From the NCBI GenBank assembly GCA_021432655.1, contig MU271334.1, forward strand, positions 62,001 to 87,688: a stretch of DNA of 25,688 bases, written 5' to 3'. The translations under genes and the position numbers were made by a program. Shown here in pieces: positions 5,393 to 24,198 of the stretch. The stretch comes from Atractiella rhizophila. Taxonomy: Eukaryota. Below the pieces are notes generated by a model. The model saw only the letters and a list, made by a program, of their open reading frames with translations. It made no database searches and had not been told where the DNA came from. Position 1 is the stretch's first letter; each line of letters starts with the position of its first letter.

Positions 5393-6732
5393 TTAATCTC
5401 TCATTCGACTTGGAGAGAACCTCCCTACCCCAACTTCTCGGATCTTATACTTCCTTATCAACCGTCGCGGATCATTCCAATCCTCTGGCATGACTGAAGA
5501 GGTGGGAGGGATGGTGACATAGGCTAAAACGAGTGTCTGTCACCGTCCATCCACGATCAATCAGTTCGTTCACATCTTGTTTCCAGCAAGAGGGCCAAGG
5601 CAGATAGGAATTAGAATTAGACGTACCTTCTTCACTCCGCTCGTGATTCGATTGAGTGTAAGGAAGCGAGTCCATGGCATGCCTTTCTCCTTCGACTTCT
5701 TGTCTGCATCTGAAAATGTCGGTATAACTTTGATAGAAAATCTGTAGGGTTGTATCCCTCCCATAGTCAACAGCAGCAGAAGGAAGTGAGAAAAGAGACA
5801 GACTCTGCATGCCCTCCCGCTGGTCCTCCCCTTCCATAAGCGACCCAGTCAACGCAAAACTTGATTCCGCTCCTTAAAACCCATCCGAGAGATCGATAGT
5901 GGTGATAGACGAGGTAAGATAGGAGGAAAGGGTTGTCCGGCTCCTTTTCTCTACCTCCGTGAGCAAGAAAGGCGTCCCATGTTTCTTCAATGCTCAACGA
6001 TGTGACGCGATCTGAAGGCTGGAGGACGTGGGTACCGATACCGAAAATGAGGAAAAAAGCCTCCTCCTTCTGCAGCTGAAGCCTCTCCTCGCCCCTCAAC
6101 TCCCTCAAATCCTCTTCTGAAAAATCCTCCAAGCCGTCTCCTCTCCCTTTTCCAGCTCCTTCTTCCAACGAAGGAAGAGGCGGAAGTCCCTTTTTCTCCC
6201 TCTTTGCCCTACCCAACTCTCTCCTCCGTCGTGCTGTCCTCTCTTCTCGTGTCTCGATGAAAGACAATCCGAGGCGATTGGAGAGACGGACGAAAAAGGT
6301 AGGCTCGGATTTGGACAGTGTACCTTTGCCGAAGGAGCCTTCCCGCCACAGAGATGTCGTATCGCCCTCTTCGACAGGAAGGTAGATACAATCTGTATCT
6401 ACATCCCATACCAAAACCTCTTTCCGCCGCTCTCTCCAAGATCTCCACAGCGTCCCAACGCCACAAAGCAGGATCCCAGTGATCGCGGCAGAGTTTGAGG
6501 TTCGAGTGAAGTTGCGTACGAAGGAGCGCGTTGAGAGGGCGTAGAGAATTGGCGAGAGTAACAAGATGTTTCGAACGGAGAAGAGGGAGGCGATTGGGTG
6601 CAGAGGGAGTGGTACGACGAGCGATGCGGGTAAGGCTCCCTGTTTTGCGCGGGAGACTAGGGGAACCTGTCTTGTCTGACCAGATTTAAGAGGCGTTCGT
6701 TTAGCCTGGGGTTTAGGGTTCGATTGCGACAT
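5393..6732 (-). CDS. SEN2: tRNA-splicing endonuclease catalytic subunit Sen2; exons 6732-5804, 5741-5627, 5536-5393
   Basis: LWREGSFGKGTLSKSEP, ERLQLQKEEAFFL, YHHYRSLGWVLRSGIKF; catalytic Tyr/His/Lys context in VAYGRGGPAGGHAEF...GVKKTL; ends RFSPSRMRD. Confidence 0.93.
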
Positions 6733-7284
6733 GTGGAAGAAGTTTTAAGTTGAGAGAGAATAGCTAAGCTGAGAAGAAAGCGAAGTCAGTCCATTTCACT
6801 CGCTCACCGACCATTGCTAGTGGAATGAGCACAAAACCTGCGAGAAGGTACTGCAGTAAGTTTTTCAATATGTCAACCAACCTGGGACCTCGTTTTGGTG
6901 GTTACTGCAATAGAAATTGAACTTCAACACTGAGATCATTGAAAAATGGACAAGGAACGAGGTGGGAAAAAAAATTGACGACGCCTGTGTGATTCGAACA
7001 CACGCCCTCGAAAGGAATGCCTTAGCAGGGCATCGCGTTAACCACTCCGCCAAAGCGCCAATGTCACTATTTTCTTTATGTGCGTTCTCTTAGGTGTCAC
7101 AAAAACAATAACCCATTCTCTTCAACTGCCATCAATTGCATTGAGTCGACACCAAGTCGTAAACTTGCCAATTACCATCCTATACATTCTTCATGTAAGT
7201 CCATAGACGTGATTAGATGGTTCCAATCTCTGACGTCCCCATAGACTTCAAGTTTTGCACGCATTACCACCATCAAAAGCAAGG

Positions 7285-8298
7285 ATGTCCGCATCGCAAT
7301 CTGAAAAGTCGCGCCAGGCGGCGTTGGAGAAGAAACGAGCGGATTTCCTAACATCTGTCGCTCAAGAGAAGCAGCGTATAATATCTGAAAGCTCGAAAGA
7401 TCGAACATCGGCAGCACGTTTCGTCGGGCAAAATGATTCGATGGAAGAGGTGTTGAAGAAGGGAACAGTGGGGTTGGTGCACTTGGACAGTTTCAAAGCG
7501 GTCCAGGAAGAGCTGCAAGAGCAGAAAAGGAGGGAGGCAGCTGGGACGGATTTAGAGGCTTTGAGGAGGGAAGAAGAGGCGGAGAGGGCGAAGATGGAGA
7601 AGAAGAGGAAGAAGGAAGAGAAACGGAAGAAGAAGTCTAACCTCTCGTTCGATACAGGAGAAGAGGTGGATTCGGCATCGTCAGCTCCTTCAAAACCCAA
7701 GAGGGACCTAGACCCAGTCGAAGAGACGCCAGAGGATGCACCACCGGTCAAGAAACTCAAAAAGAATCCGAATGTCGACACCTCTTTCCTCCCCGACCGC
7801 GAACGTGAAGCGAAAGAACGAGCGATCAAAGAAGAGCTGCGTCTCGAGTTCCTCGCCAACCAAGAACTCATCAAAGCCGAACCCGTAGAAATCACGTATT
7901 CGTATTGGGACGGATCTGGTCATCGAAAGTCTGTCATGTGCACGAAGGGAGACACCATCTCCAACTTCCTTGAAAAGTGCCGCGCTCAGTTTCCGGAGTT
8001 GAGGAACGTCTCTGTCGACAATTTGATGTACATCAAGGAAGACTTGATCATTCCTCACCATTATAAGTTTTACGATTTCATTCTCAACAAGTATCGTGGC
8101 AAGAGCGGTCCCTTGTTCAATTTCGACGTCCATGACGATGTTCGGCTGATGGCGGATGCGACTATGGAGAAGGATGAAAGTCACGCCGGGAAGGTGGTAG
8201 AGAAGAGCTGGTATAATAGAAACAAGCACATATTTCCGGCAAGCAGGTGGGAGGTTTTTCATCCCGACAAGGACTACGGTAAATACACAATAGCATGA
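7285..8298 (+). CDS. XAP5: XAP5/FAM50 family nuclear protein, intronless, 337 aa
   Basis: [79 protein letters not shown]. First in-frame ATG at 7285. Confidence 0.96.
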
Positions 8299-9857: not shown

Positions 9858-11540
9858 AAAATCAGACATCCTATTCTCGGTCGCGATCACTCGAATTTTC
9901 AATCTAGCCACAGTGGTACGATATTTCCTTTGTGACGCGGTCCCAAGAACTGTCGAAACTATTCTAACCTACCCAGTCATAGGAGTAGTCTCCCGTAGAA
10001 CAACCTCCGACACAACGGGGGATGGGCAAAACCCAAAGGTATACGCGTTGTATCTGAATGAATTACCAGCTTGACGGAAAGGTTACTCCTTTCAAGACAC
10101 TTTGCTCTTCTTCGTTTCAAAGTGCACGCCTCAAATAAATTTCAGACATGTGCCTAGTGTTCAAATTCAGGCTTTAGGAATCTAGTTCAATTCTCATTTG
10201 GTTGCAACTTCACGGTTATAGTACATGACATGATGTTTATTTGGTTCGACCTTTGATAAAAAAAACTTGACTCTTTCGGATTTCTAGGGTTTGTCATCAT
10301 TTTGGTAATCATTATAGTATATTAACCCCGTGACCTCGTTGTCTGGTGATTTCCAACAGAGTTAGCAAATCTAAATGACCATACTTCGCTAATCACACTG
10401 TCTAGAATATTTTCATGTAATGGACACCTGGGCAAAAAGAGAATGGCACAACTCTTGGTTGTTAAACGATTTTGATGGCTTTGCTGAGTGTAAACAAGGT
10501 GGCAACAAAAAGCAGTGAGTAATATTCGACATCGCAGGGATTTACTAATGTTTAGCAAGGGGAACGTGAATTTTCCGTCTCGGAGTGCACTACAGGCTGT
10601 CCGGGAGATCACATGTACAACACAGGCAACGACAGGTTGGTGAGATGACATGATCATAGGTGATATCAAAATGAGGGCAAAGATACAGTCATAGACAATG
10701 TTAACGTTACCAACAACAACAACATCATGGGTGATGACAGCGTGGTAGAGGAAAGCGGCGAACCCGTCTCGCGTGAAGTCTCCCCCACCACCACCCAAAT
10801 CTGTCAGACCGTTACACCAACAGGACGACATCGAATCCACTCTGAGCTCCCTTCCAAACATGCTCACGTTGCAGTCATGCAGGTTCTCCTGCATTGCATC
10901 GGCACCACATGGACTGACGTTGCTTCTTGCTTGAATCGATGTTCTCTTGGTTGCGTCTGTTGTGGTGGTAGATGGATGCCAGAATCAGGATGAGTTGGTC
11001 GACGTTAAGAGTGGTCGAAAAGAGAGCAGAGCTGTCGCGCTTTGTAAGGTCTGTTGAACCGAGAAACAAATTAGAAGCCCCTCAACACGCTGTAGGAACT
11101 GTCAGATCCACCCCTGGGATACTGGTGAGAAGGAAAAATTGACCCCTGGGGGTTTGCGGGATTCTGCACCTCAGTTCGGCAAAGATGTGCACGTAAGAAT
11201 GGTCCAGTTTTCAACACGACATTGCCGACACTGTAATTGCCCAGAAAGTTGCAAGTTTGCCTAAACCTCACTTTTTGCTCCTGTCTAAGAAATGTGAGTG
11301 ACTCTCTGCAGGGTATCTTGTGTTGACCTGTTGCTAAAAGGGTGATCCGAAGACCAGGGGTCGACTTTCCAGTCATCTGTCCCTGGAAAGACCCTCCACC
11401 ATTCGTAAGGTGGAGCTCAGAGGAACCTCGGTACAGTCTTGGATGGCTACTCGAAGGAGAATTATACCGATCCATGAGCATGGAGTTCTTGAACAGGCCG
11501 GATAGAAATGCTACAAGCTGCCTGTCAGGTTTGCATCTTA

Positions 11541-11641
11541 CGCAAATCGGCGCCCGTTCGCCGGATTGCGTCTCTTATTGCCCATTTGCGTTCCCTGCGA
11601 ATCGGCGCCCGTCGCCACTGCGTCTCCCGTCGCCCATTTGC
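11541..11641 (+). repeat. GC-rich imperfect tandem duplication (~55 bp period) in the U3 part of solo LTR A
   Basis: AATCGGCGCCCGT at 11545 and 11600; TGCGTCTC and GCCCATTTGC each occur twice. Confidence 0.75.
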
Positions 11642-11823
11642 ACCTACATCACCACTTAGCCAATTGTGCCTAACCTCCTCTTATTAACTCCATGTAATCC
11701 CACTGCCACTTCCCCTTTTAGTTCTCTTACATGTTTCATCTGCTCTCCTCCACGCTCTGTGGCAGTGTTATTCCGCTTGTATATATAGATCCGAGAGTAG
11801 TGGAGGTGACCTTAGAGTATTCT

Positions 11824-11892
11824 CTTAGGTTTATCTCCACTACAGGTTAGTCTTCATGTCATATCATGCACTTAGGTTTATCTCCACTACAG
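11824..11892 (+). repeat. Direct repeat X-(GT..)-X in solo LTR A defining a 47-nt intron-like unit at 11846-11892
   Basis: CTTAGGTTTATCTCCACTACAG at 11824-11845 and 11871-11892; the spacer starts GTTAGT; hairpin GTAGTGGAG/CTCCACTAC at 11797-11843. Confidence 0.85.
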
Positions 11893-12048
11893 ACGCATCG
11901 CCTATCGGCGACCGCACATAGTGTCAGCCCTAACACTGCCTCATCTTTGTGCTAAAAAGTGGGAGAGCGAGAACATGTTTGTCACTCCCTGAACCACCCT
12001 TCGAAGTCTTTCTACATTTAATGTGTTAAAGGGAAGGTCCACTCGCTG

Positions 12049-12543
12049 TGTTAGAATTGGTGGTTTTTATTAGACGTTCTTATATGTTTCTTCCTCTTTG
12101 TCTTATTGTTGTAACGCGTCTTCCATATTTGTACGTGATTGCGGAGTTTTGTGGTGTTTGTTTTATGTGGGCACTTCGCCACTTTGCCGGGACTATAAAA
12201 GACTTATCCTGTTTTCTTCAAATCTTTTCCCCAATCGATTTGCTTGTCATTTCACTGCTTACACTCGATTGGGGAAACCAGGTATGTTCATTACTTTATT
12301 CACTTGAAATACCAAATCGATTTGCTTGTCATTTCACTGCTTACACTCAATTGGGGAAACCAGGTATGTTCATTACTTTATTCACTTGAAATACGAATCG
12401 ATTTGCTTGTCATTTCACTGCTTACACTCGATTGGGGAAACCAGGTATGTTCATTACTTTATTCACTTGAAATACAAATCGATTTGCTTGTCATTTCACT
12501 GCTTACACTCGATTGGGGAAACCAGAGCAAATCCTTTCTCTTT
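12049..12543 (+). repeat. 5' LTR of the copia element (495 bp) with ~3.6 copies of an 81-82 bp unit
   Basis: Starts TGTTAGAATT, ends CTTTCTCTTT; unit starts at 12233, 12315, 12396 and 12477. Confidence 0.96.
12194..12200 (+). promoter_or_regulatory. Candidate TATA box of the copia LTR
   Basis: TATAAAA 39 nt upstream of the first repeat unit; same motif in the 3' LTR. Confidence 0.6.
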
Positions 12544-12555
12544 TGGTAGCGAGAG
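12544..12555 (+). other. Primer-binding site TGGTAGCGAGAG (probably initiator tRNA-Met)
   Basis: Directly follows the 5' LTR; TGG complements tRNA CCA; the first 8 nt equal the yeast Ty1 PBS start TGGTAGCG. Confidence 0.75.
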
Positions 12556-12597
12556 AGTGTTGCGAACAGCGACATCGAAGAGAAATCTGCGCGCGAA

Positions 12598-15500
12598 ATG
12601 TCACGACAAGAGCCCACCACTCCTGAAAATCAAACGAGAGCTGCGAACGATACACCTCAACCTCCGTCTCGTGCCCCTCCTCCTAGAAGTACGGTTACTC
12701 CTCCCCTCATCGATCCCTCATCATTCTCCATTCCACTCTCTCTCTCAAACAGTGGCAGAAGTGGGGAAATGTCGGTGAATGGCGCGATTCAAAGCCTCCT
12801 CGCGAACGATCCCATTCCTGAACTTGATTACAACAACGCGAAGATATTTTTCAAGCTCATCGATCAAGCGTTTAGAGCATATGGTGTTGCGTTGGTTACC
12901 GAAGGCGTTCTTACGGAGCCGATAAATCCTAAGACAGGAATCACGCTGACCGAACAAAGGAGGATCATGCAATCTGGAGGTACCATCAGCATCAGGGAAG
13001 CAACGGAGGAGAGAATCGAAGCGTATATGAGGGCGCTTACGGTTTATCAGCAAAAAGCTGCAATTGCGATGGCGTTATTGAGGAAAGCTGTGGGAAATAC
13101 GGCAAAAGTCTTTATCGAAGGAACCAAAGATCCTGTCAATGCTATGAAGATTCTCAAGCAAAAATTCGATACAACGCAGTATATCGACGTGGCTCACCTG
13201 CTCAAGGAACTCCTCGATTTCGTCTTCCCTGCCAGTGGACTCTCTCTCTCCGATTGGATTGCGAAGTTGCACGAAAAACGTAGACACTTCAACGAAGCGC
13301 AGTCAACTATTCAGATTTCGGACGCTTTTCTCTCCTTGATCCTTATCAACGGTCTTGATGAGCCTCTCCGGAGATGGCTTTCCTCTACCGGGGTGACACA
13401 AACGGATCTCGCGACCGTTGTGCAGAAGCTTACAGCAGAGGAGCAAGCCAGGAAGAACAGGGGAGGGAGCATGGAAGATGCGGGATTGTCACTATTTGCA
13501 AGGATGGAGGGTCAACAAAAGCAGAACAGCACTCCCAAGAAGTCCAACTCCGCTAGCCTGGCCGCGCGAATCTCCTCTCCGAACAAATCTGGCACTAGAA
13601 CTCCAACGAAGCCTGCTGCGTCAACGTCGCGATCTCCTCCTGTTACACCTCTCATCAACAGGATCGCTCCAAACGCGCGAGCACTCAAGAACTGGGGAGA
13701 ATGGCCACATGGCACTTCCCCCAAGGGTTTCTTTCGTATTGGACTTAACCAGTGCTACCATTGTGGACAAGAGGGACACTGGGGAAGAGAGTGTACCTTG
13801 CCTAAGCACCAACAGATTGATTCCCTCGTACGAGAATTCAAAAAGTTCAACATCGATCTACCTCGAGCAAACGCCAACGCTTTCCTCATCAAGGTCTTCG
13901 ATGAAGGAAACGCTCCTGCGATTTTTGCTGAAGATATCAATCCAGAGACTCAACGTCCTTATTTCGAAGAACCAGATGTCATCTCGAGCTATGACAATCA
14001 TTCTCAAGACGTGAATTCTGCGCACTACGTCATACACACCTCTGATGGCAAGATGGACGAAACGTTTGTAGCTGGGGACTTTGGGGCGTATCTGGCGATG
14101 GTGAATGACGATGATACCTTGGAGCAGGGAGATGAATTGGAACCTCTCATTCAAGAACCAGCTTTCGAGATTTTTACGAAACAAGACAACTTCTGGACAG
14201 AGGATGTTAGAGAGTTGGAAATCGTTCATGCCCTTTCTGCTTTCGCCGCGCAGCTTCAAGATGAAGACCAGGTTATCCGTGTTGCAGGAGCGTCAAACTA
14301 TCTCGACGACTTCCTCGCCACGATGGAAACCAGAGACAGGAAGGATGTCGAAGGCTTGAGTGCTGAGCATAAGATTGTTCAAGATGGCCTCAAGCAGAAG
14401 TTGAAGGATGTCGTCGATTACGTGTTGAAGAACCTCTCGCCTGCCACTCTCAGCGTTCCACCCCAGTTGGAACGAAGGGGTGATAGTGGTCAGGGAGAAG
14501 GTGGTTTAGGGGAGTCGATGGTGGTGCCATCGCTCTCCAGCAGCTCGAATCACGGAAAGGAGCAAGATGATCTCAAACTGGGTGGTACTGTCCAAAACGC
14601 ATTCGTAGTGTCTCCCGTAAATCTTTCGATGGATCACGTTCCCGTCCACCCTCCTACGAATCCAGATGCGAAGCAGGAACGATTTCACCTTGATTCTGGC
14701 GCCTCTATTCATCTTACGGATTCTCAGAGGTTACTTCACAACTATCGAGAACTCCAGGTGCCCATCGCGATCACTGGAGTTTTCGGTTCGACTGGTTATG
14801 CTGTCGGAGTGGGAGACTTGAGACCAGTTTTTCAAGCATGGAACGGGTTGATCCACTCTGGGACGATTAGAAACGTATTCTACGCACCCCAGCTCGGAGT
14901 AAACCTCATCTCCTCGAGAATCTTGATGAAGTCTGGAGTAAAGTTTACCAACGACACTAGAACCGTGTACCTAGCTGGAAGAGACGATAAAGTGTTCGGG
15001 ACTTGCGAAATAGGTCACAAACTTATCACCCTTCAGGCGAGTTTCATCCCAGCCTCTCCCTCGTCCCCTCGACCAAATGCTTCTCTAAATGCTTTCCCTG
15101 CAGTATCAATGCGTACCTGGCACCTCCGTCTAGGACATCCCGGAATGGATAGGCTTAAGCAAGCCATAAAGGATGGATTGGTTTTGGATTCTCAAATAAA
15201 GTCTTGCAATGAGAACGAAGTTCAACAGTGCGTTGTATGTGCGAAAGGGAAAGCACGTTACGATAAGAGCAAGACGCCTGAAAAGGACAGAGAAAGCGTT
15301 GTGGGAAGGACTTTTGGTTTCGATACTTGGGGACCGGCTTCAGTGAGGAGCATCCAAGGATATCACTATGGTTATGGGGCAATCGATGAAGCATCGCGAT
15401 TCATGGTCATCGGAGGGATGAAATCGAAGTCAGAAGCCCCTGAGAAAATAGAAGATACGAGGGCTTTCATTAAAAGGGAGAAAAATCAGGACGTGTGCAT

Positions 15501-18303
15501 AATCAGGCACGATAGAGCGATGGAATTCACTTCAAAGGCAGTTGAAGAGTGGAAAAAGAAGCACAACATCACATCGATGAGAACGCTTCCGTATGCGCAT
15601 GAACAAGGGGGGCTCTGGGAACGTCAGTGGTACACACTCCTGAATATCACGCGTTGTCTCCTCATTCAGTCTGGGCTCCCGTTATCGTTTTGGTACGAAG
15701 CAATCAAAGTTGCAGTAAAGCTACGGAACATAATGCCAACGAAGGGAAATAAGGATGGAAAGTCAGCGTATGAGGTGTTCTACGGCAAGAAACCGGACAC
15801 GACGCATCTAAGGACATTCGGTTGTCTTGCTGCTGTGACTATAATGCCAGAAAAAAGGGGATCGAAACTATCGCCAAGGGCGAAGTTGATGTACTTTGTC
15901 GGATACGTCTCAGACGGATACGGGTGGCGTTTTTGGGACCCAGAAGGAGGCCCAACAAAGATTGTTGAGAGTCGATCCGCGAAGTTCTTCGAAGATAAGT
16001 TCTATGAGAAGAGGTCAGAACAAGACCAGGAAATTTTGAGGAAGATGAGTACGGACGGTCTCCTTTTGTTATCGCCGCCACATGGAGATGATGAAGACGA
16101 GGATGACGATGACGGAGTACTGGAAGAGGAGTTGGATGGACCTCATGTAACACGATCAACCGAGGAACGGGAATGGAAACCACGAACCGTTGATTTTTCA
16201 AGCAGGCCGTCTCCATCTCCACCACCCTCTCCCTCTCCCGTACCAAGGTCCACTCTGTCCATAGATCAGAACACATCGCCCCCGGAGTTCACCCACTCGT
16301 CGAATTCATCTCGAGTTCCCGCACCCAGGAACGTCCGACATATGGTGACCGCTTTTGAACAGAATCTAGAGAGAGAACGCCAGCACGCGAAGGAAACTGA
16401 AATCTTCACACCAATGAAGAATGCCTTGAGGAGGGGGTTACGTAGAAAGGAGAGGAGGGACTACCGACAAATGCATGAGAAAGGACTGTGTACGATAGCT
16501 GAGGGAGATTTAGCTGTTGAAGACCTCCTCCGAGGAGTGACAACGGCAAAATCGGATGGTGGGACTCATGCCCTTCTTGCGCGCATCTCGGAGGGACCGT
16601 ATCACTTCCTAATCCCTGACGAAGATGACGATGAAGAGTTTGAGGTTTATTGGACCGGAAATCTTGATGAGCCATCGTATGCGCAGGCAATGGCAGGGGC
16701 GGATGCTGAAAAATGGAGGATGGCTATGGATACAGAGATGGCGGCGTTAGATGCGATGGGGACATGGAGAAGGAAATGCATTGAACTGCCGTCAGGTCGT
16801 AAGGCGTTGGGAGTAAAGTGGGTGTTGTTGATCAAACGAGAACCGGATGGGACGGTGCGAAAGTACAAAGCGAGACTGGTGGTGCGGGGAGATCAGCAGA
16901 CAGAAGGGGTCGACTATGCGGAAACTTGGTCACCTACCGTGCGGATGACATCCCTTCAAGCGATAATGGCACTATCTGCTGTGCTCAAACTCCACCGTCG
17001 TCAGTTCGATATTGGCAATGCATTCCTCAATGGGAAGTTAGACGAAGAGGTCTACGTAAGACAGGCGCCTGGATACACTGACCCATCCAATCCGAAAGCA
17101 GTGCATCAGCTCTCGAAGGCCCTGTATGGACTGTGTCAAGCTGGCAGACAATTTAATATCGATCTTCATGAAAAACTTACCAACATCGGTTTCCGTAGGA
17201 CCGAATCCGATCACGGCGTATACACGCTATCTCGTGGAAAGGATTTTATCTTCCTGTGCCTCCACGTCGATGATGGATTATTGGTGTCCACCGACGAAAA
17301 ATTAATCGATAACATCTTGGACAACTTGCGAAAACACTACAAGGTCGAATCCGGTGAGGCAAAGCTGTTTCTGGGGATTGAATTGGAGGGGGACGAAGGA
17401 AGGGGGTTGTTAAAAGCGCATCAAAGGGGGTATGCGAAGAGGCTGGTCGAGCGTTACCTAGGGACGCAGGTGTCACCAGTGAGGATGCCAGTCGATTACG
17501 GGAAACGGCTTACCCCAGATTTGTCACCGAAATCAGAGGTTGAACGGGAATCCATGAAGCATGTCCCTTATCGCGAAGCCGTGGGAGCGCTCATTTATCT
17601 CACGACTTGTACTCGTCCGGATATCGCATTCGCTGTTGCAGATGTCGCTCGATATTGTGCGGACCCTGGGGTGCAACACTGGTTAGCTGTGAAGCGAATA
17701 CTTCGTTACATAGCGGGGACTTACGACTACGGGCTTCATTTTGACGGATATCAACACTCCAGCACGGCATTCGACGCCTATGTGGACGCGGATCATGGGG
17801 CAGACCCTTCCACCAGGAGGTCTGTTTCCGGTGTCCTCTTTCGCCTAGGGGGATCCGCAATTTCTTGGATTTCGAAACGGCAGCTGAGCGTAGCAATTTC
17901 GTCCACCGAGGCGGAGTATATTGCAATGTCATTGGCTACACGCGAGGCCGTATGGCTACGTCGTTTGTTTTTCGAGTTAGGATTTAGTCAAGAGGGACCT
18001 ACCTTGATCAGGGGTGATAACCAGGGTGCAATTACTCTCGCTTCGCACCCGGTTGCTCATGGAAGAACAAAACACATTGAAGTCCACTATCATTACACTA
18101 GAGAAAAGGTGTTAGACCAGTCCGTCCTCTTGAAATGGATTCCTACCAGGCAACAATTGGCGGACATCCTCACAAAAGGCCTGGCGGCGAACCTGCAGCT
18201 TCGTTTCTGTTTCCAGATTGGCTTGTTGGGAGACTCTGCAAGCGTGGAGTTCCTCGATCGGGACGTGGATGGACTTGGAGGAAATGGAGCAGTGTCGAAG
18301 TGA
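12598..18303 (+). CDS. Copia Gag-Pol polyprotein, single ORF, 1901 aa
   Basis: Zinc knuckle CYHCGQEGHWGREC; protease LDSGAS; WHLRLGH...CVVC; integrase FDTWGP / RHDRAMEF / LWER; RT KYKARLVVRG, FDIGNAFLNG, ALYGLCQA, HVDD; RNase H YVDADH, TEAEY, DNQGA, LADILTK. Confidence 0.98.
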   Translation: MSRQEPTTPENQTRAANDTPQPPSRAPPPRSTVTPPLIDPSSFSIPLSLSNSGRSGEMSVNGAIQSLLANDPIPELDYNNAKIFFKLIDQAFRAYGVALVTEGVLTEPINPKTGITLTEQRRIMQSGGTISIREATEERIEAYMRALTVYQQKAAIAMALLRKAVGNTAKVFIEGTKDPVNAMKILKQKFDTTQYIDVAHLLKELLDFVFPASGLSLSDWIAKLHEKRRHFNEAQSTIQISDAFLSLILINGLDEPLRRWLSSTGVTQTDLATVVQKLTAEEQARKNRGGSMEDAGLSLFARMEGQQKQNSTPKKSNSASLAARISSPNKSGTRTPTKPAASTSRSPPVTPLINRIAPNARALKNWGEWPHGTSPKGFFRIGLNQCYHCGQEGHWGRECTLPKHQQIDSLVREFKKFNIDLPRANANAFLIKVFDEGNAPAIFAEDINPETQRPYFEEPDVISSYDNHSQDVNSAHYVIHTSDGKMDETFVAGDFGAYLAMVNDDDTLEQGDELEPLIQEPAFEIFTKQDNFWTEDVRELEIVHALSAFAAQLQDEDQVIRVAGASNYLDDFLATMETRDRKDVEGLSAEHKIVQDGLKQKLKDVVDYVLKNLSPATLSVPPQLERRGDSGQGEGGLGESMVVPSLSSSSNHGKEQDDLKLGGTVQNAFVVSPVNLSMDHVPVHPPTNPDAKQERFHLDSGASIHLTDSQRLLHNYRELQVPIAITGVFGSTGYAVGVGDLRPVFQAWNGLIHSGTIRNVFYAPQLGVNLISSRILMKSGVKFTNDTRTVYLAGRDDKVFGTCEIGHKLITLQASFIPASPSSPRPNASLNAFPAVSMRTWHLRLGHPGMDRLKQAIKDGLVLDSQIKSCNENEVQQCVVCAKGKARYDKSKTPEKDRESVVGRTFGFDTWGPASVRSIQGYHYGYGAIDEASRFMVIGGMKSKSEAPEKIEDTRAFIKREKNQDVCIIRHDRAMEFTSKAVEEWKKKHNITSMRTLPYAHEQGGLWERQWYTLLNITRCLLIQSGLPLSFWYEAIKVAVKLRNIMPTKGNKDGKSAYEVFYGKKPDTTHLRTFGCLAAVTIMPEKRGSKLSPRAKLMYFVGYVSDGYGWRFWDPEGGPTKIVESRSAKFFEDKFYEKRSEQDQEILRKMSTDGLLLLSPPHGDDEDEDDDDGVLEEELDGPHVTRSTEEREWKPRTVDFSSRPSPSPPPSPSPVPRSTLSIDQNTSPPEFTHSSNSSRVPAPRNVRHMVTAFEQNLERERQHAKETEIFTPMKNALRRGLRRKERRDYRQMHEKGLCTIAEGDLAVEDLLRGVTTAKSDGGTHALLARISEGPYHFLIPDEDDDEEFEVYWTGNLDEPSYAQAMAGADAEKWRMAMDTEMAALDAMGTWRRKCIELPSGRKALGVKWVLLIKREPDGTVRKYKARLVVRGDQQTEGVDYAETWSPTVRMTSLQAIMALSAVLKLHRRQFDIGNAFLNGKLDEEVYVRQAPGYTDPSNPKAVHQLSKALYGLCQAGRQFNIDLHEKLTNIGFRRTESDHGVYTLSRGKDFIFLCLHVDDGLLVSTDEKLIDNILDNLRKHYKVESGEAKLFLGIELEGDEGRGLLKAHQRGYAKRLVERYLGTQVSPVRMPVDYGKRLTPDLSPKSEVERESMKHVPYREAVGALIYLTTCTRPDIAFAVADVARYCADPGVQHWLAVKRILRYIAGTYDYGLHFDGYQHSSTAFDAYVDADHGADPSTRRSVSGVLFRLGGSAISWISKRQLSVAISSTEAEYIAMSLATREAVWLRRLFFELGFSQEGPTLIRGDNQGAITLASHPVAHGRTKHIEVHYHYTREKVLDQSVLLKWIPTRQQLADILTKGLAANLQLRFCFQIGLLGDSASVEFLDRDVDGLGGNGAVSK

Positions 18304-18310
18304 AGGGGGG
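18297..18310 (+). other. Polypurine tract
   Basis: GAAGTGAAGGGGGG immediately before the 3' LTR, overlapping the pol stop codon. Confidence 0.85.
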
Positions 18311-18642
18311 TGTTAGAATTGGTGGTTTTTATTAGACGTTCTTATATGTTTCTTCCTCTTTGTCTTATTGTTGTAACGCGTCTTCCATATTTGTACGTGA
18401 TTGCGGAGTTTTGTGGTGTTTGTTTTATGTGGGCACTTCGCCACTTTGCCGGGACTATAAAAGACTTATCCTGTTTTCTTCAAATCTTTTCCCCAATCGA
18501 TTTGCTTGTCATTTCACTGCTTACACTCGATTGGGGAAACCAGGTATGTTCATTACTTTATTCACTTGAAATACAAATCGATTTGCTTGTCATTTCACTG
18601 CTTACACTCGATTGGGGAAACCAGAGCAAATCCTTTCTCTTT
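18311..18642 (+). repeat. 3' LTR of the copia element (332 bp) with ~1.6 copies of the 81 bp unit
   Basis: Equals the 5' LTR minus 163 bp (82+81); units start at 18495 and 18576. Confidence 0.96.
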
Positions 18643-18947
18643 CGCTGGATTTGACTTCTTGAAAGATGGGGATTTTATTCCTGTGCTCACATTCACAATG
18701 AACACATCGAAGACGCTGCTGAACAAAGCGGTGGATGAAGTATATGTGCAGAGAGGAAAGAATGTGTTTGGAATAAAGGAGGATCCTCAATGGTATTGTC
18801 ACCCCTGTACCAATGCTAACCCTTCCATATCCTCACATGCAGCATATTGTCCTCTTCCTCATCATGAGCCTCACACAGAATGTCTTCGAAGTTAATGCTG
18901 TAAGTCTTGTTGCAGGAATGTGTCTTTGTGCAACCCAGGGGAGATGA

Positions 18948-21878: not shown

Positions 21879-21991
21879 TCCCAAAAGTACTACCATGGTA
21901 TATTTGCGTATATTGTACACAGTTATCTAGTTGGAAATGCAGTCCATCTTTCTTTACCTCTCTGCAGCGTTATCTAACTCCCTCCTGAACG

Positions 21992-24198
21992 TCAGCCCAA
22001 GTCTCCTCTCTTTCTACTTTGCCCTACATCCTTTATTTGTTCTGCCCTCACCTTGCCACAGCTGTTGCCGTCATTTCCATTTGCATCGAGTTCATCACCA
22101 ACACCGATGATCTTAAGGAAATACTTAGTAGGCAACCATTCTTGCAAAAAGACTGTGGACTCAGCGTACTCATCAATGCAAAACTTCAGGTTGGCGATAT
22201 GTTCAGTCATTTTAACTGCTGGTCCGGTGCAACACTTGACATCGAAGGGTAGTCAGGGATTTGAGGGATTTGAGTTGTTGATACTGTCGAAGACGCATAG
22301 GTGTTTGGCTACAATGTTCAGAACATTCCACCACGATAAATATATTGTACCACCTTACTCAGCCAGAAATGGCGTACATCTTTCTTTACACCATTTTTAC
22401 TTCCGTTATCCTTCGTCCCCACCAACTGTCCTTCCAACCCTCCACCGTTTCGAGGTCAGTTTCCCACCCACCTACTCCCATCCACTCGTTTTGTTTAGCA
22501 TCGTCGTCCAATCTCCCTCTGGTGCTTTCAAAAGTTAGCAGCTTGTTCTCCTCCCAAATGTTGGTAGTCGCGATTCGCTGACGAATCGTATGTTCGTCCG
22601 GCTTCTCTAACAAACTTCCACAATACTCGACGACCCGTTCCACATCTTTTCGTTCCCGACTTTGGGGATCCTTTTGAAAGACTTGAGCTGGGTCCCGCAA
22701 AAAGGCAGAACTGTGCTTCCATATCGAATGACGTCGCTCGTAATTGGGTAGCTGCCGTTCACATTCCAGCAGGAGGATTTGCCGGGCTAAAGGAATAAAA
22801 GAGAGATGGTAGACATATTCGAAAAAGACTGTCAATGGGTTAGTGCGTGTCGCCTGCAGGGAAGGAAAGCGTGCGTGGCCAAGTCCGTTGTGTTTGCAGC
22901 ACCGTTTCAATCGTCACTCTCTCCCGCCGTGGATCGGTTGGAGCGTTGTGGAACCATATCCAGCTTTACCAGCGATCAGTTACAGATCATAGCCAAAGAG
23001 GACGGTATTCACATCAGAGTGTTCCGCAACATTTCGAGCGATGGTAGCGGCTCCAATTTCCACCATTGCTCACTGTTCGCACCATCACAACGGTAAGGGA
23101 GATATGATGAGAAACACTTACACAAGCTTCGCACCATGTTGATGGCTCCATACGGCGAATCCTCTCTTTTCTTTCTTCAGGTCATTGATACGAGGCAACT
23201 CGTCCTGTGACTTGCCGTGGAAGAAGGTAATCGATTTCTCAAGACCTTGATTTGCGTTCGCTGTTACAGACGAGATCAGGGGATGTTGTATGAAGGCTAA
23301 AACGTACGAATGTAACGCAGAATGCCACCAAAACGCCTTCGTGTCAATTCGGGCTTAGAAAAGAAGCCAGACAGATCACTGGGAACTCGAAGCAGATCAA
23401 AGTCTTTGGTTTCAGATTCGTCCAATGTGCAATACTCTGGACCGACAATAAATTTTCGCACTTGATCCATCATTGTTTCAAGTCTGCTGTAACAGTAAGA
23501 TGGGAAATCAGTGATAAAGGATGTACCCTTCCCATGACCAATAGGAACTAGAAGGCAGGTTAGGACCTGATGTGATGTTTACACTCAACCGTGAGATGAG
23601 CTCCTTATTTGCGTTCCTCTGAGAAATTCTTCCAGTGATTGTGATGGATGGAATCCCCTCCTTTGGGACTGAATGGTTGGCACGCTCCTTGTTCTGTATA
23701 ACGCTCTGCTCTCGTTTTGTTTGAGGTGCTGGTTTGGTGTTTATTTTCATTTTCCCAGCTTCGACTGGACCTGGTTCCTCCCCCTGACCCAAACTTGTGG
23801 TTCGCGGTGACTTCAACTCTCTCCGATGCCTTTTCGAGGGTCGCTCTGCGTCCTGCTCTTGAAATTGAGCGTCCCGTCGCTTCTTACGTTCGACTAAATG
23901 AGCAGGCTCAGCTTCCGGTCCTGAACCGCTCGTTTCTGCGAATCGCTAATGTCAGCGGGCTTAGATAGGATGATAAAGGATTGGGCTCGCCAGCATCTCC
24001 TGCCACATCGTTACTTCCTTCACCATCATCTGTTGCGTCTTGCGCTTTAGCTTCCCGCAACCGTCTCTGCCTCTCCAGGAAGTCCTTTTGAAATGTGCTG
24101 AGCGTATTCTCCAGTCGATCCTGCCAGGATGTTGTCGATTCTGGGCTGAATCGTAATCTATCGATTATCGGTTTTGTCTCCTCCGCGTCAGAATCCAT
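21992..24198 (-). CDS. Hypothetical multi-exon protein (start and last exons uncertain)
   Basis: Successive minus-strand ORFs joined by short introns give a continuous translation (MDSDAEETKP...RLETMMDQVRKF...EQWWKLEPLP...FFEYVYHLSF...). No family recognised. Confidence 0.6.

Follow-up and report, generated by a model that had tools for sequence, protein, structure and literature searches.

A tandem array at the predicted transcript start in the LTRs of an Atractiella rhizophila Ty1/copia element, with candidate leader introns

Reverse transcription of spliced RNA erases introns, an outcome that furnished the first proof of retrotransposition, and retroelements are hence mostly intron-poor. 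In several basidiomycetes intronless genes are poorly expressed, and poorly spliced transposon RNAs trigger RNAi. A locus of Atractiella rhizophila raises the question of how the LTRs of a retrotransposon could come to carry tandem copies of what appears to be the start of their own transcript, with a motif resembling a splice donor at the repeat borders. We analysed a 25,688-bp window of contig MU271334.1 (assembly GCA_021432655.1, positions 62,001 to 87,688 of the forward strand); positions given below are those of this window, and the features of the element all lie on its + strand. A preliminary description had explained the array as an intron that is rebuilt from spliced RNA at each round of reverse transcription.

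The element is an intact Ty1/copia LTR retrotransposon. Its LTRs are direct repeats of 495 bp (12049-12543) and 332 bp (18311-18642), flanked by the 5-bp target-site duplication CGCTG at 12044-12048, where a 6-nt reading TCGCTG is also possible, and again at 18643-18647, where it adjoins the end of the 3' LTR. Directly 3' of the 5' LTR, TGGTAGCGAGAG begins at 12544; we read TGGTAGCGAGAGAGTG (12544-12559) as the primer-binding site, apparently of the initiator-tRNA-Met 3'-end type, and GAAGTGAAGGGGGG (18297-18310), which adjoins the 3' LTR, as the polypurine tract. A gag-pol ORF of 1901 aa runs without interruption from 12598 to 18303, and its Pfam domains follow the Ty1/copia order of gag, protease, integrase, and RT/RNase H: zf-CCHC at residues 385-400, gag_pre-integrs at 822-885, rve at 919-998, SH3_retrovirus at 1062-1136, and an RVT_2-type reverse transcriptase at 1394-1632 (E = 3.6e-50), with Pol_BBD also detected. 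The LTR starts with TG (TGTTAG) and ends in CTCTTT in place of the CA of a TG...CA terminus, a usual but not strictly defining feature that we do not hold against membership in Ty1/copia. With LTRs that are identical outside the array, a preserved target duplication, and an unbroken reading frame, the element appears to be young and autonomous. A protein search with gag-pol found no close relative, and the nearest named relatives, from Microbotryomycetes, share 42-48% identity.

The array is built from a 49-nt repeat, here called X (AATCGA...ACCAG), which starts at 12233, 12315, 12396, and 12477 in the 5' LTR and at 18495 and 18576 in the 3' LTR. Five of the six copies are identical, and the one at 12315 carries a single G>A (48 of 49 nt identical). 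Every X except the last of each LTR is followed by a 31-nt spacer beginning with GTATGT, and X, spacer, and 1-2 junction nucleotides make up a module of 81-82 bp. TRF describes 12233-12525 as 3.6 copies of period 81 with 97% matches and a score of 563. The 5' LTR, as counted in the window's assembly alone, contains four X and three spacers: X1 (12233-12281), spacer 1, GTATGT...GAAATAC, with junction CA (12282-12314), X2 with the G>A (12315-12363), spacer 2 with junction G (12364-12395), X3 (12396-12444), spacer 3 with junction A (12445-12476), and X4 (12477-12525), followed by the 18-nt end of U5, AGCAAATCCTTTCTCTTT (12526-12543). The 3' LTR has two X and one spacer, arranged as U3 (18311-18494), X (18495-18543), spacer (18544-18574), junction A (18575), X (18576-18624), and U5 end (18625-18642). 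The repeat, the GT-spacer, and the hairpin discussed below had been named in the preliminary description and are all present at the positions it gave. Its scheme U3-X-intron-X-U5 describes the 3' LTR correctly but not the 5' LTR, the interval for which it was offered.

U3 enhancer repeats were considered as an identity for the array and rejected, since it begins 38 nt downstream of TATAAAAG, a candidate TATA box; it extends to 18 nt before the primer-binding site. Rfam gave no match in 12000-12650 at E <= 1, the sole match in the whole window being a tRNA. For the spacer, no similar sequence was found elsewhere in the 25,688-bp window, the best stray match being 12 nt.

The inheritance of the array can be approached by comparing the two LTRs. 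Outside the array they are identical, in U3 (184 bp) and in the last 68 bp, and there are 0 differences in 332 aligned bp; the 5' LTR simply has two extra units of 81-82 bp. A single deletion from unit 1 to unit 3, which share 80 identical nt, turns the 5' array exactly into the 3' array, whereas conversion of the 3' into the 5' array requires an expansion plus three point changes in 163 bp. By our arithmetic, three changes placed at random among the 827 LTR bases would all land in the extra 163 with a probability of about 0.008. This asymmetry, together with the identity of the LTRs elsewhere, suggests that the array most likely had its several units before the insertion took place and that its template was the 5' end of an unspliced RNA. 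The difference between the LTRs could also have arisen through gene conversion by another copy, and the number of units counted in the 5' LTR could result from misassembly.

These observations bear on the plainest account of the locus, in which the array is an ordinary minisatellite produced by slippage or unequal exchange, or else a misassembly, and the splice-like motifs are incidental and without meaning at the RNA level. Variable-copy tandem repeats are common in LTRs, the two LTRs here differ in unit number only, and the 5' count comes from a single assembly. The 3' array of X-spacer-X, at 1.6 units, is nonetheless impossible to obtain by tandem duplication of a single-copy sequence, since plain duplication of a single X should give at least 2.0 units. 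The sequence variation is also concentrated at the junction nucleotides: the spacer-to-X junction is different in each unit of the 5' LTR (CA, G, and A), and of the three differences among these units, two are at the 1-2 nt just 5' of X and one lies within X2, an argument drawn from three junctions in one LTR. Finally, the array starts at the expected transcription start, inside the arm of a strong hairpin, and its repeat border coincides with CAG|GTATGT, a motif with a chance of about 4e-5 per position in the window. We regard a minisatellite or artefact as improbable.

Transcription is predicted to start at 12233, the first base of X1. The candidate TATA box (12195-12202; its function is judged from sequence) lies 38 nt upstream of the first X, X1 begins at a C|A step, and a variable nucleotide precedes each later X. 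The junction is the only hypervariable position of the array, a trace to be expected at the point where reverse transcriptase reaches the RNA 5' end and leaves its template.

A hairpin of 13 bp with a 26-nt loop occupies 12226-12277 (arms 12226-12238 and 12265-12277, UUUCCCCAAUCGA and UCGAUUGGGGAAA), and its 5' arm straddles the start of X1, half of it belonging to U3 and half to X1. Its folding energy is -22.3 kcal/mol, whereas shuffled sequences average -10.4 (z = -4.8), and 0 of 200 shuffles fold equally well. In the context of the later copies the hairpin is absent, and X folds at -5.8 kcal/mol (z = +1.3; 182 of 200 shuffles as good). The 3' LTR has the hairpin as well, with 18478-18642 folding at -35.8 kcal/mol (z = -3.3). 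If 12233 is the start site, it follows that the two RNA ends would be asymmetric, with the full hairpin predicted to form only where U3 is transcribed, at the RNA 3' end. That a hairpin of -22 kcal/mol masks the first X is conjecture.

Each border between X and spacer reads CAG|GTATGT (12279-12287, 12361-12369, 12442-12450, and 18541-18549), which agrees with a GTRNGT donor, preferably preceded by AG. The last base shared by the X-spacer and X-U5 borders is the G of CAG, after which GTATGT begins. CAGGTRNGT occurs six times on both strands of the window and four of these occurrences belong to the array, leaving two in about 51,000 positions, or about 4e-5 per position by our arithmetic; judged by these counts, the coincidence of donor motif and repeat border would not plausibly be due to chance. 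From GTATGT to the next CAG, the candidate acceptor at the end of X, the putative intron spans 81-82 nt, so that a YAG lies at a host-typical distance. Within these 81 nt there is no CTRAY branch site, and so none in the interval of 10-40 nt upstream of the 3' splice site; a pyrimidine tract is missing as well. Under the looser pattern YTNAY, CTTAC lies 20 nt and TTCAC 27 nt before CAG, with CTTAC the best branch candidate.

Short introns of this kind would suit the host. The flanking genes appear to be split by GT..AG gaps of 43-105 nt (10 candidates from an ORF-joining heuristic, some of them mutual alternatives), which makes short GT..AG gaps plausible in A. rhizophila. In Cryptococcus neoformans introns are required for mRNA accumulation (PMC3744415), and Cryptococcus introns have degenerate signals and a mean length of 65 nt, those in UTRs being somewhat longer (PMC5851062).

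The border between the last X and U5 reads like an exon-exon junction and has exactly the sequence that splicing at CAG|GTATGT would produce, X4 plus U5 corresponding to the spliced leader. This suggests that the cDNA of a spliced leader was once, probably, joined to an unspliced 3' end of the form U3-X-spacer. Each spacer has an upstream ATG (12284, reading MFITLFT*, 12366, and 12447 in the 5' LTR) that opens a 7-codon uORF, and the 121-nt leader equivalent to the spliced form has none.

As a side observation, a spliced junction would have the same sequence as the genomic last X-U5 and is thus invisible to short-read junction callers. The U5 stretch AGCAAATC is able to pair with GATTTGCT of X, and since the fold of the spliced-equivalent leader is no better than that of shuffles (z = 0.12), we draw no claim from this pairing.

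The 3' end of the RNA is a second point on which the array speaks. The preliminary description had placed polyadenylation within the second X, for which the sequence gives no support: no poly(A) signal was seen in the sequence of X, and the sole signal-like stretch, UAUGU...UUUAUU...GAAAUAC|A, is located in the spacer. These motifs point to a candidate poly(A) site at or just before 18575-18576, outside X.

A signal in the spacer is central to a different account, in which there is no splicing today. The module would be R itself, from the transcription start to polyadenylation at GAAAUAC|A, concatemerised by aberrant minus-strand transfers, and GTATGT would be a UAUGU-type poly(A) element, or a U1 site that silences the promoter-proximal poly(A) signal, rather than a used donor. 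The module borders suit a start site and a Py-A cleavage site, the spacer contains UAUGU, a U-rich stretch, and GAAAUA, in an order that we take to be that of yeast-type 3'-end signals, and the branch site departs from the consensus. A poly(A) tail could have supplied the junction A, and copying of the cap the junction G. What this account leaves unexplained is that the last X is joined to U5 exactly at CAG, for which a spliced ancestor is still required; in addition, unspliced leaders would have one to three uORFs and one to three poly(A) signals before gag. We consider it a tenable minority possibility.

The reading that we prefer, to which we give a probability of roughly 0.5, is that minus-strand strong-stop transfer built the array at the start of R, that the array probably contains one or more leader introns, and that it is normally copied from unspliced RNA. 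The module would consist of X, as the start of R, the spacer, and 1-2 untemplated junction nucleotides. In a founding event, strong-stop cDNA made on a spliced leader (X plus the 18-nt end of U5) would have been joined to an RNA ending in U3-X-spacer, giving U3-X-spacer-N-X-U5. Out-of-register or end-to-end transfers of cDNA from unspliced leaders would then add units, each transfer with its own junction nucleotides left where reverse transcriptase runs off the capped 5' end of the RNA. Units could be lost again by homologous slippage, as may have happened in the 3' LTR of the present copy. In the ordinary cycle unspliced RNA would be copied, R-U5 would come from the RNA 5' end, and the array would be inherited by the standard mechanism.

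Such transfers would leave the LTR with between one and three short candidate introns in its leader (GTATGT...CAG, 81-82 nt). The nested introns would be removable stepwise, since CAG|GTATGT would be re-formed at each X-spacer border. Their splicing would strip all upstream AUGs and all poly(A)-signal-like spacers from the gag-pol mRNA, and it would supply the splicing event needed for expression in intron-dependent basidiomycetes.

A rival model is the regular cycle of the preliminary description, in which the RNA begins with a leader spliced to X-U5-PBS and has its poly(A) site inside the second X, the hairpin masks the first X, and U3-X-intron-X-U5 is rebuilt every time. Part of it agrees with the sequence, namely the likeness of the X-U5 border to an exon-exon junction, the donor lying exactly at the repeat border, and a strong hairpin that would be fully formed only at the 3' end. 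If out-of-register transfers are frequent, and the three different junctions suggest that they are, the structure would at some rate be regenerated from spliced templates too, and engineered split-intron retroviral vectors provide a precedent for assembling an intron by LTR copying (PMC3182074). The same model predicts a stable X-spacer-X, whereas the 5' LTR has three unspliced units with diverged junctions that were most likely inherited through reverse transcription. Moreover, the only poly(A)-like sequence is the spacer itself, and a site at the spacer end would leave an RNA without the second X; a partial second X would provide a shorter stretch of homology than the first X, which is complete. 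Hairpins in R that are about as stable, HIV-1 TAR among them, are not known to block transfer, and in Ogre/EVADE-type elements the unspliced RNA is the genome that is copied. The introns of Ogre and EVADE yield subgenomic RNAs by alternative splicing (PMC12786077). Routine regeneration of the intron from spliced RNA is improbable.

In a further reading, the element is a natural split-intron retrotransposon in a host that depends on splicing for mRNA accumulation, and its LTR intron is more than tolerated. Here strong-stop cDNA of the spliced leader would join unspliced U3-X-spacer, out of register or end to end, so that the LTR intron is rebuilt at minus-strand transfer and its loss is repaired at an appreciable rate. 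We think this improbable; if it is true, the unit number and junction nucleotides of an LTR would record the number and kind of transfers.

Sequencing data and relatives were searched for further copies of the array. Among 11 sequencing runs listed, most of the stretch occurs in two DNA runs of one sample only, and we compared four of the runs with it, labelled X1, X4, X5, and X11, all of which consist of contigs. DNA run X1, assembled as k-mer unitigs, spans the LTR and breaks at the repeats, with no joint reported within 12049-12543. Its summed depth in bin 12310-12360 (unit 2 and variants) is 45.7 against about 250 in the internal region, in data of a type whose holes prove nothing, and it shows several differences from the window in the flanks and gag, so that it may be another strain. 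In the RNA-labelled run X11, a root metatranscriptome, one 151-nt contig of depth 2 matches U3 at 12050-12200 with three differences, and it is no evidence of transcription, start site, splicing, or polyadenylation. In each of runs X4 and X5 the match was limited to a short piece of gag or to the repeat upstream.

An exact-pattern scan for X gave 0 matches in viral_contigs and 0 in metagenome_contigs. A protein-guided search kept 80 loci with identities of only 27-46%, and 19 of those of at least 5.5 kb have a direct-repeat pair. Eight of the 19 were inspected: seven contain true LTRs with plant-type primer-binding sites, and in the remaining one (L001) the repeat is coding sequence. In none of these seven distant copia LTRs, from metagenome loci of unrelated plant-type hosts, is there an X-spacer-X layout or any internal repeat of more than 15 nt. 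The primer-binding site of the element was found in none of the 80 loci, in which TGGTAGCG occurs six times but never after an LTR. These loci are too distant to bear on the question of the array. A literature search, which most subscription journals lay outside, returned no report of an intron within an LTR or built from R repeats.

An LTR that has its own leader intron, formed by duplication of the start of R, would show a way for a retroelement to supply the splicing that its host requires and still keep the intron, and the element would be a natural counterpart of engineered split-intron vectors. Even when read conservatively, the array is a rare case of strand transfers recorded in a sequence, among them a spliced leader joined to an unspliced 3' end, untemplated bases at the junctions, and unequal unit numbers in the LTRs of one young copy. 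The model lends itself to direct testing, since the array yields nucleotide-precise predictions for the start site and for the end of R.

The closest known systems are the split-intron vectors themselves (Ismail et al. 2000, as described in PMC3182074), whose genomic RNA is not spliced at a donor placed in the 3' LTR. Through reverse transcription this donor is copied into the 5' LTR, and a functional intron exists in the progeny provirus only (PMC3182074). The likeness to our reading of the Atractiella LTR is that an intron is assembled through LTR copying. As described there, the vectors are engineered, their acceptor lies outside the LTR beyond the packaging signal, and they have no R repeat, whereas in the Atractiella element both candidate sites are within the LTR, and the end of exon 1, in its duplicate, would serve as acceptor.

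In HTLV-1/BLV and the foamy viruses the major donor is in R. Both RNA ends therefore have it, but only the 5' copy is used, and there is an interplay between this donor and the regulation of the promoter-proximal poly(A) site. Their acceptors, in contrast, are far downstream in the body of the genome, the intron extends beyond the LTR, and there is no tandem repetition of R. Drosophila copia is an intron-containing LTR retrotransposon. Ogre and EVADE, too, are LTR retrotransposons with functional spliceosomal introns (PMC12786077). The three belong to the Ty1/copia or Ty3/gypsy elements, and their introns are internal and serve subgenomic gag mRNAs or mRNAs that fuse ORFs, and our literature search found no report of an LTR-internal or R-repeat-built intron in elements of their kind.

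For the array as a repeat, the 72-75-bp enhancer repeats of MLV and the U3 boxes of Tnt1/Tto1 are comparable in being head-to-tail and variable in copy number, with changes that arise during reverse transcription. They lie in U3, upstream of the start, and act as enhancers, while the Atractiella array extends from the predicted start onward. For the junctions, the 'untidy ends' of Ty1 described by Gabriel, Mules, and Boeke in 1996-98 reportedly consist of non-templated additions at strong-stop ends that become fixed at the junction through strand transfer. They resemble the source proposed here for the CA, G, and A junctions; they are point changes at LTR borders, not concatemers of R.

For the candidate introns, recursive splicing at CAG|GTATGT 'ratchet' sites re-forms a donor at each step, so that several units are removed stepwise. 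Introns are also gained by duplication of an exon segment containing AG|GT, in which one copy provides the donor and the other the acceptor and the mRNA is restored. That route duplicates the DNA of a host gene, whereas in the Atractiella element the duplication would involve the beginning of a retroelement transcript and would probably have occurred during reverse transcription.

The LTRs of a complete retrotransposon in the window carry a tandem array of 81-82 bp units. We consider it about an even bet (roughly 0.5) that this array repeats the start of R in variable number, having been made and resized by minus-strand transfer, and that it yields one to three leader introns; all readings given here are drawn from the sequence of one element copy. 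The 5' LTR spans 495 bp (12049-12543) and the 3' LTR 332 bp (18311-18642), flanked by a 5-bp target duplication, CGCTG (12044-12048 and 18643-18647), which can also be read as 6 bp, TCGCTG. Read from the sequence, a candidate primer-binding site (TGGTAGCGAGAG) lies directly 3' of the 5' LTR and a candidate polypurine tract (GAAGTGAAGGGGGG) directly 5' of the 3' LTR. A single unbroken ORF (12598-18303, 1901 aa) encodes Pfam-type domains in the Ty1/copia order of zinc knuckle, gag_pre-integrs, rve, SH3_retrovirus, and RVT_2. Judged by its LTR pair, target duplication, primer-binding site, polypurine tract, and domain order, the element is a Ty1/copia member; the usual CA is absent from the 3' terminus of its LTRs, which start with TG and end with CTCTTT (12541-12543 and 18640-18642). 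Among the matches listed, the closest named polyprotein relatives are from Microbotryomycetes (Sporobolomyces, Rhodosporidiobolus, Rhodotorula, Microbotryum) at 42-48% identity, and none of the best 120 matches listed from a search of 5.8 billion proteins exceeds 48%. Long by copia standards, the polyprotein has acidic and Ser/Pro-rich low-complexity linkers (gag/protease and integrase/RT).

The array is built on X, a repeated 49-nt sequence (AATCGA...ACCAG) with first bases at 12233, 12315, 12396, 12477, 18495, and 18576; five of its six copies are identical and the 12315 copy has one G>A. Within each LTR, consecutive X copies are separated by a 31-nt spacer (GTATGT...GAAATAC) plus 1-2 further nt on its 3' side. 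TRF assigns the 5' array a period of 81, 3.6 copies, 97% matches, and a score of 563. All features named in the preliminary description are present at the positions given there, and its U3-X-intron-X-U5 layout matches the 3' LTR (U3-X-spacer-X-U5), but the 5' LTR interval to which it was applied has four X and three spacers. Since the array lies downstream of a candidate TATA box (TATAAAAG, 38 nt upstream of the first X), it is not a U3 enhancer repeat. The hairpin reported at the first X (predicted arms 12226-12238 and 12265-12277) is borne out by folding, with -22.3 kcal/mol where shuffled sequences average -10.4 +/- 2.5 (z = -4.8; none of 200 did as well). X in the context of a later unit reaches -5.8 kcal/mol (z = +1.3), and the 3' LTR forms the same hairpin too.

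Hypervariability within the array is confined to the 1-2 nt directly 5' of X. In Ty1, untemplated additions occur where reverse transcriptase runs off the end of its template. By analogy, the first base of X would mark the RNA 5' end, and this candidate start site agrees with the TATA spacing and a C|A step. Since this site falls within the hairpin's 5' arm, the complete hairpin would be confined to the RNA 3' end, an asymmetry that the preliminary description had foreseen. X-spacer and X-U5 agree up to the G of CAG, beyond which the spacer opens with GTATGT. The two strands of the window together contain six CAGGTRNGT motifs, four of them in the array, and on these counts the chance of the motif at one given position is ~4e-5. 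The simplest account of the X-U5 border is an exon-exon junction. X-spacer-X cannot arise from one X by plain tandem duplication; that the array is an ordinary minisatellite or an assembly artefact seems quite improbable.

Sequence features bear both ways on whether the unit is an intron. The candidate donor matches the full consensus, the candidate acceptor is CAG, and the length of 81-82 nt is within the fungal range. The flanking host genes (FAD/BBE oxidase, tRNA-splicing endonuclease, XAP5) appear interrupted by short gaps, which a crude heuristic joins as GT..AG intervals of 43-105 nt; the host is probably a basidiomycete with short introns. In Cryptococcus, introns average 65 nt, with longer UTR introns and degenerate signals (PMC5851062). 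A uATG within each spacer starts a uORF of 7 codons, and the 121-nt leader equivalent to the spliced form, with X joined directly to the end of U5, has none. Because CAG|GTATGT is re-formed at each X-spacer border, units could be removed stepwise. The candidate intron lacks a CTRAY branch site, CTTAC at 20 nt upstream of CAG being the closest approach to one, and it lacks a pyrimidine tract. The sole RNA-labelled run yielded one 151-nt contig, located on U3; the spliced product is identical to the genomic last X-U5 and so would be detectable only by cap-anchored full-length reads.

The spacer also reads UAUGU, a U-rich stretch, GAAAUA, and then C|A, an order that we take to resemble a yeast-type 3'-end signal. 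These motifs place the candidate end of R at the spacer end, ~18575, rather than within the second X, where the poly(A) site had been proposed; R may thus end there, which would make the module a complete R. The array could then be a set of R concatemers without present-day splicing, in which GTATGT serves as a poly(A) or U1 element, a reading that we regard as unlikely.

Comparison of the two LTRs bears on the template. Outside the array they have 0 differences over U3 (184 bp) and the last 68 bp, so this copy is young by its sequence. The junctions preceding X2, X3, and X4 (the second to fourth copies in the 5' LTR) are CA, G, and A, the sole 3' LTR junction is A, and the two extra 5' units hold three differences, including the G>A of X2. 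A single homologous deletion from unit 1 to unit 3, which have 80 identical nt in common, turns the 5' array exactly into the 3' array, while the reverse requires an expansion and three point changes in 163 bp with 332 aligned bp unaltered; by our arithmetic, three random changes would all fall in that 163 bp with a chance of ~0.008. The 3.6-unit array with its diverged junctions therefore most likely predates this insertion. Under the standard mechanism, the genomic RNA's 5' end supplies R-U5 to the two new LTRs, so three spacers most likely remained unspliced in the template of this copy.

This is the main counterpoint to the preliminary description, in which the intron is regenerated each cycle from 5'-spliced RNA and progeny should always be X-spacer-X; as a regular cycle, we consider this very doubtful. 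Its logic is partly supported, and its core idea gains support at least for the origin of the structure, the X-U5 border being equal to a splice product. The multi-unit array, most likely inherited, contradicts it in part. Its specific steps find no support: a poly(A) site in the second X, masking of the first X by the hairpin, and an obligatory spliced template.

If the array is instead made and resized by minus-strand transfer, it would have been founded when strong-stop cDNA made on a donor-spliced leader joined an unspliced RNA 3' end still reading U3-X-spacer. Growth would come from transfers of unspliced-leader cDNA, out of register or end to end, with separate junction bases left by each, and shrinkage from homologous slippage. 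The one to three candidate introns would probably be spliced from translated mRNA, the normally copied template being unspliced RNA. Unspliced genomic RNA is the copied template in intron-bearing LTR elements. Ogre and EVADE are named as LTR elements with introns in PMC12786077. Leader splicing would strip the uORFs and promoter-proximal poly(A) signals, and would supply the splicing event that intron-dependent basidiomycetes require for expression (PMC3744415). A weak branch site could also be a liability, since in Cryptococcus RNAi is set off by transposon RNAs that splice poorly (PMC5851062, PMC7175516).

A tRNA-Ser(GCT) gene (6977-7060, minus strand) lies ~5 kb upstream of the element, between the tRNA-splicing endonuclease (5472-6744, minus) and XAP5 (7234-8298, plus) genes. 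Ending ~110 bp upstream of the insertion site, positions 11800-11935 are a very high-copy repeat in DNA sequencing run X1 (summed contig depth ~250,000-650,000 versus ~250 for the element interior), where variant contigs are numerous and internal rearrangements occur; it is found at 100% identity in run X5, from another organism, and matches no tRNA and no Rfam family. Non-coding sequence upstream of it (11530-11640) holds a local direct repeat, gcaaatcggcgcccg...gcccatttgc, twice. Starting at 12161, one contig of run X1 agrees with the LTR through TATA box, hairpin and X, and it differs upstream, which points to another LTR subfamily or to a recombinant sharing the promoter-proximal part and R. 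On the right flank (18643-18700), an ATG ~25 nt downstream of the element opens a frame, part of the 18461-18895 frame, which has no Pfam match; given this spacing, the insertion may lie in a promoter or 5' UTR. Another 49-nt direct repeat (21909-21957 and 22341-22389; 73% identity, 432 bp apart) lies in or beside unannotated ORFs.

No report of an LTR-contained intron or of an intron made of R repeats was found in the literature searched, which excluded most subscription journals. Among the closest concepts are retroviruses whose major donor is located in R, intron gain by duplication of an AG|GT segment, and recursive splicing. Equally among them are split-intron retroviral vectors, in which reverse transcription copies a donor in the 3' LTR to the 5' LTR (PMC3182074).
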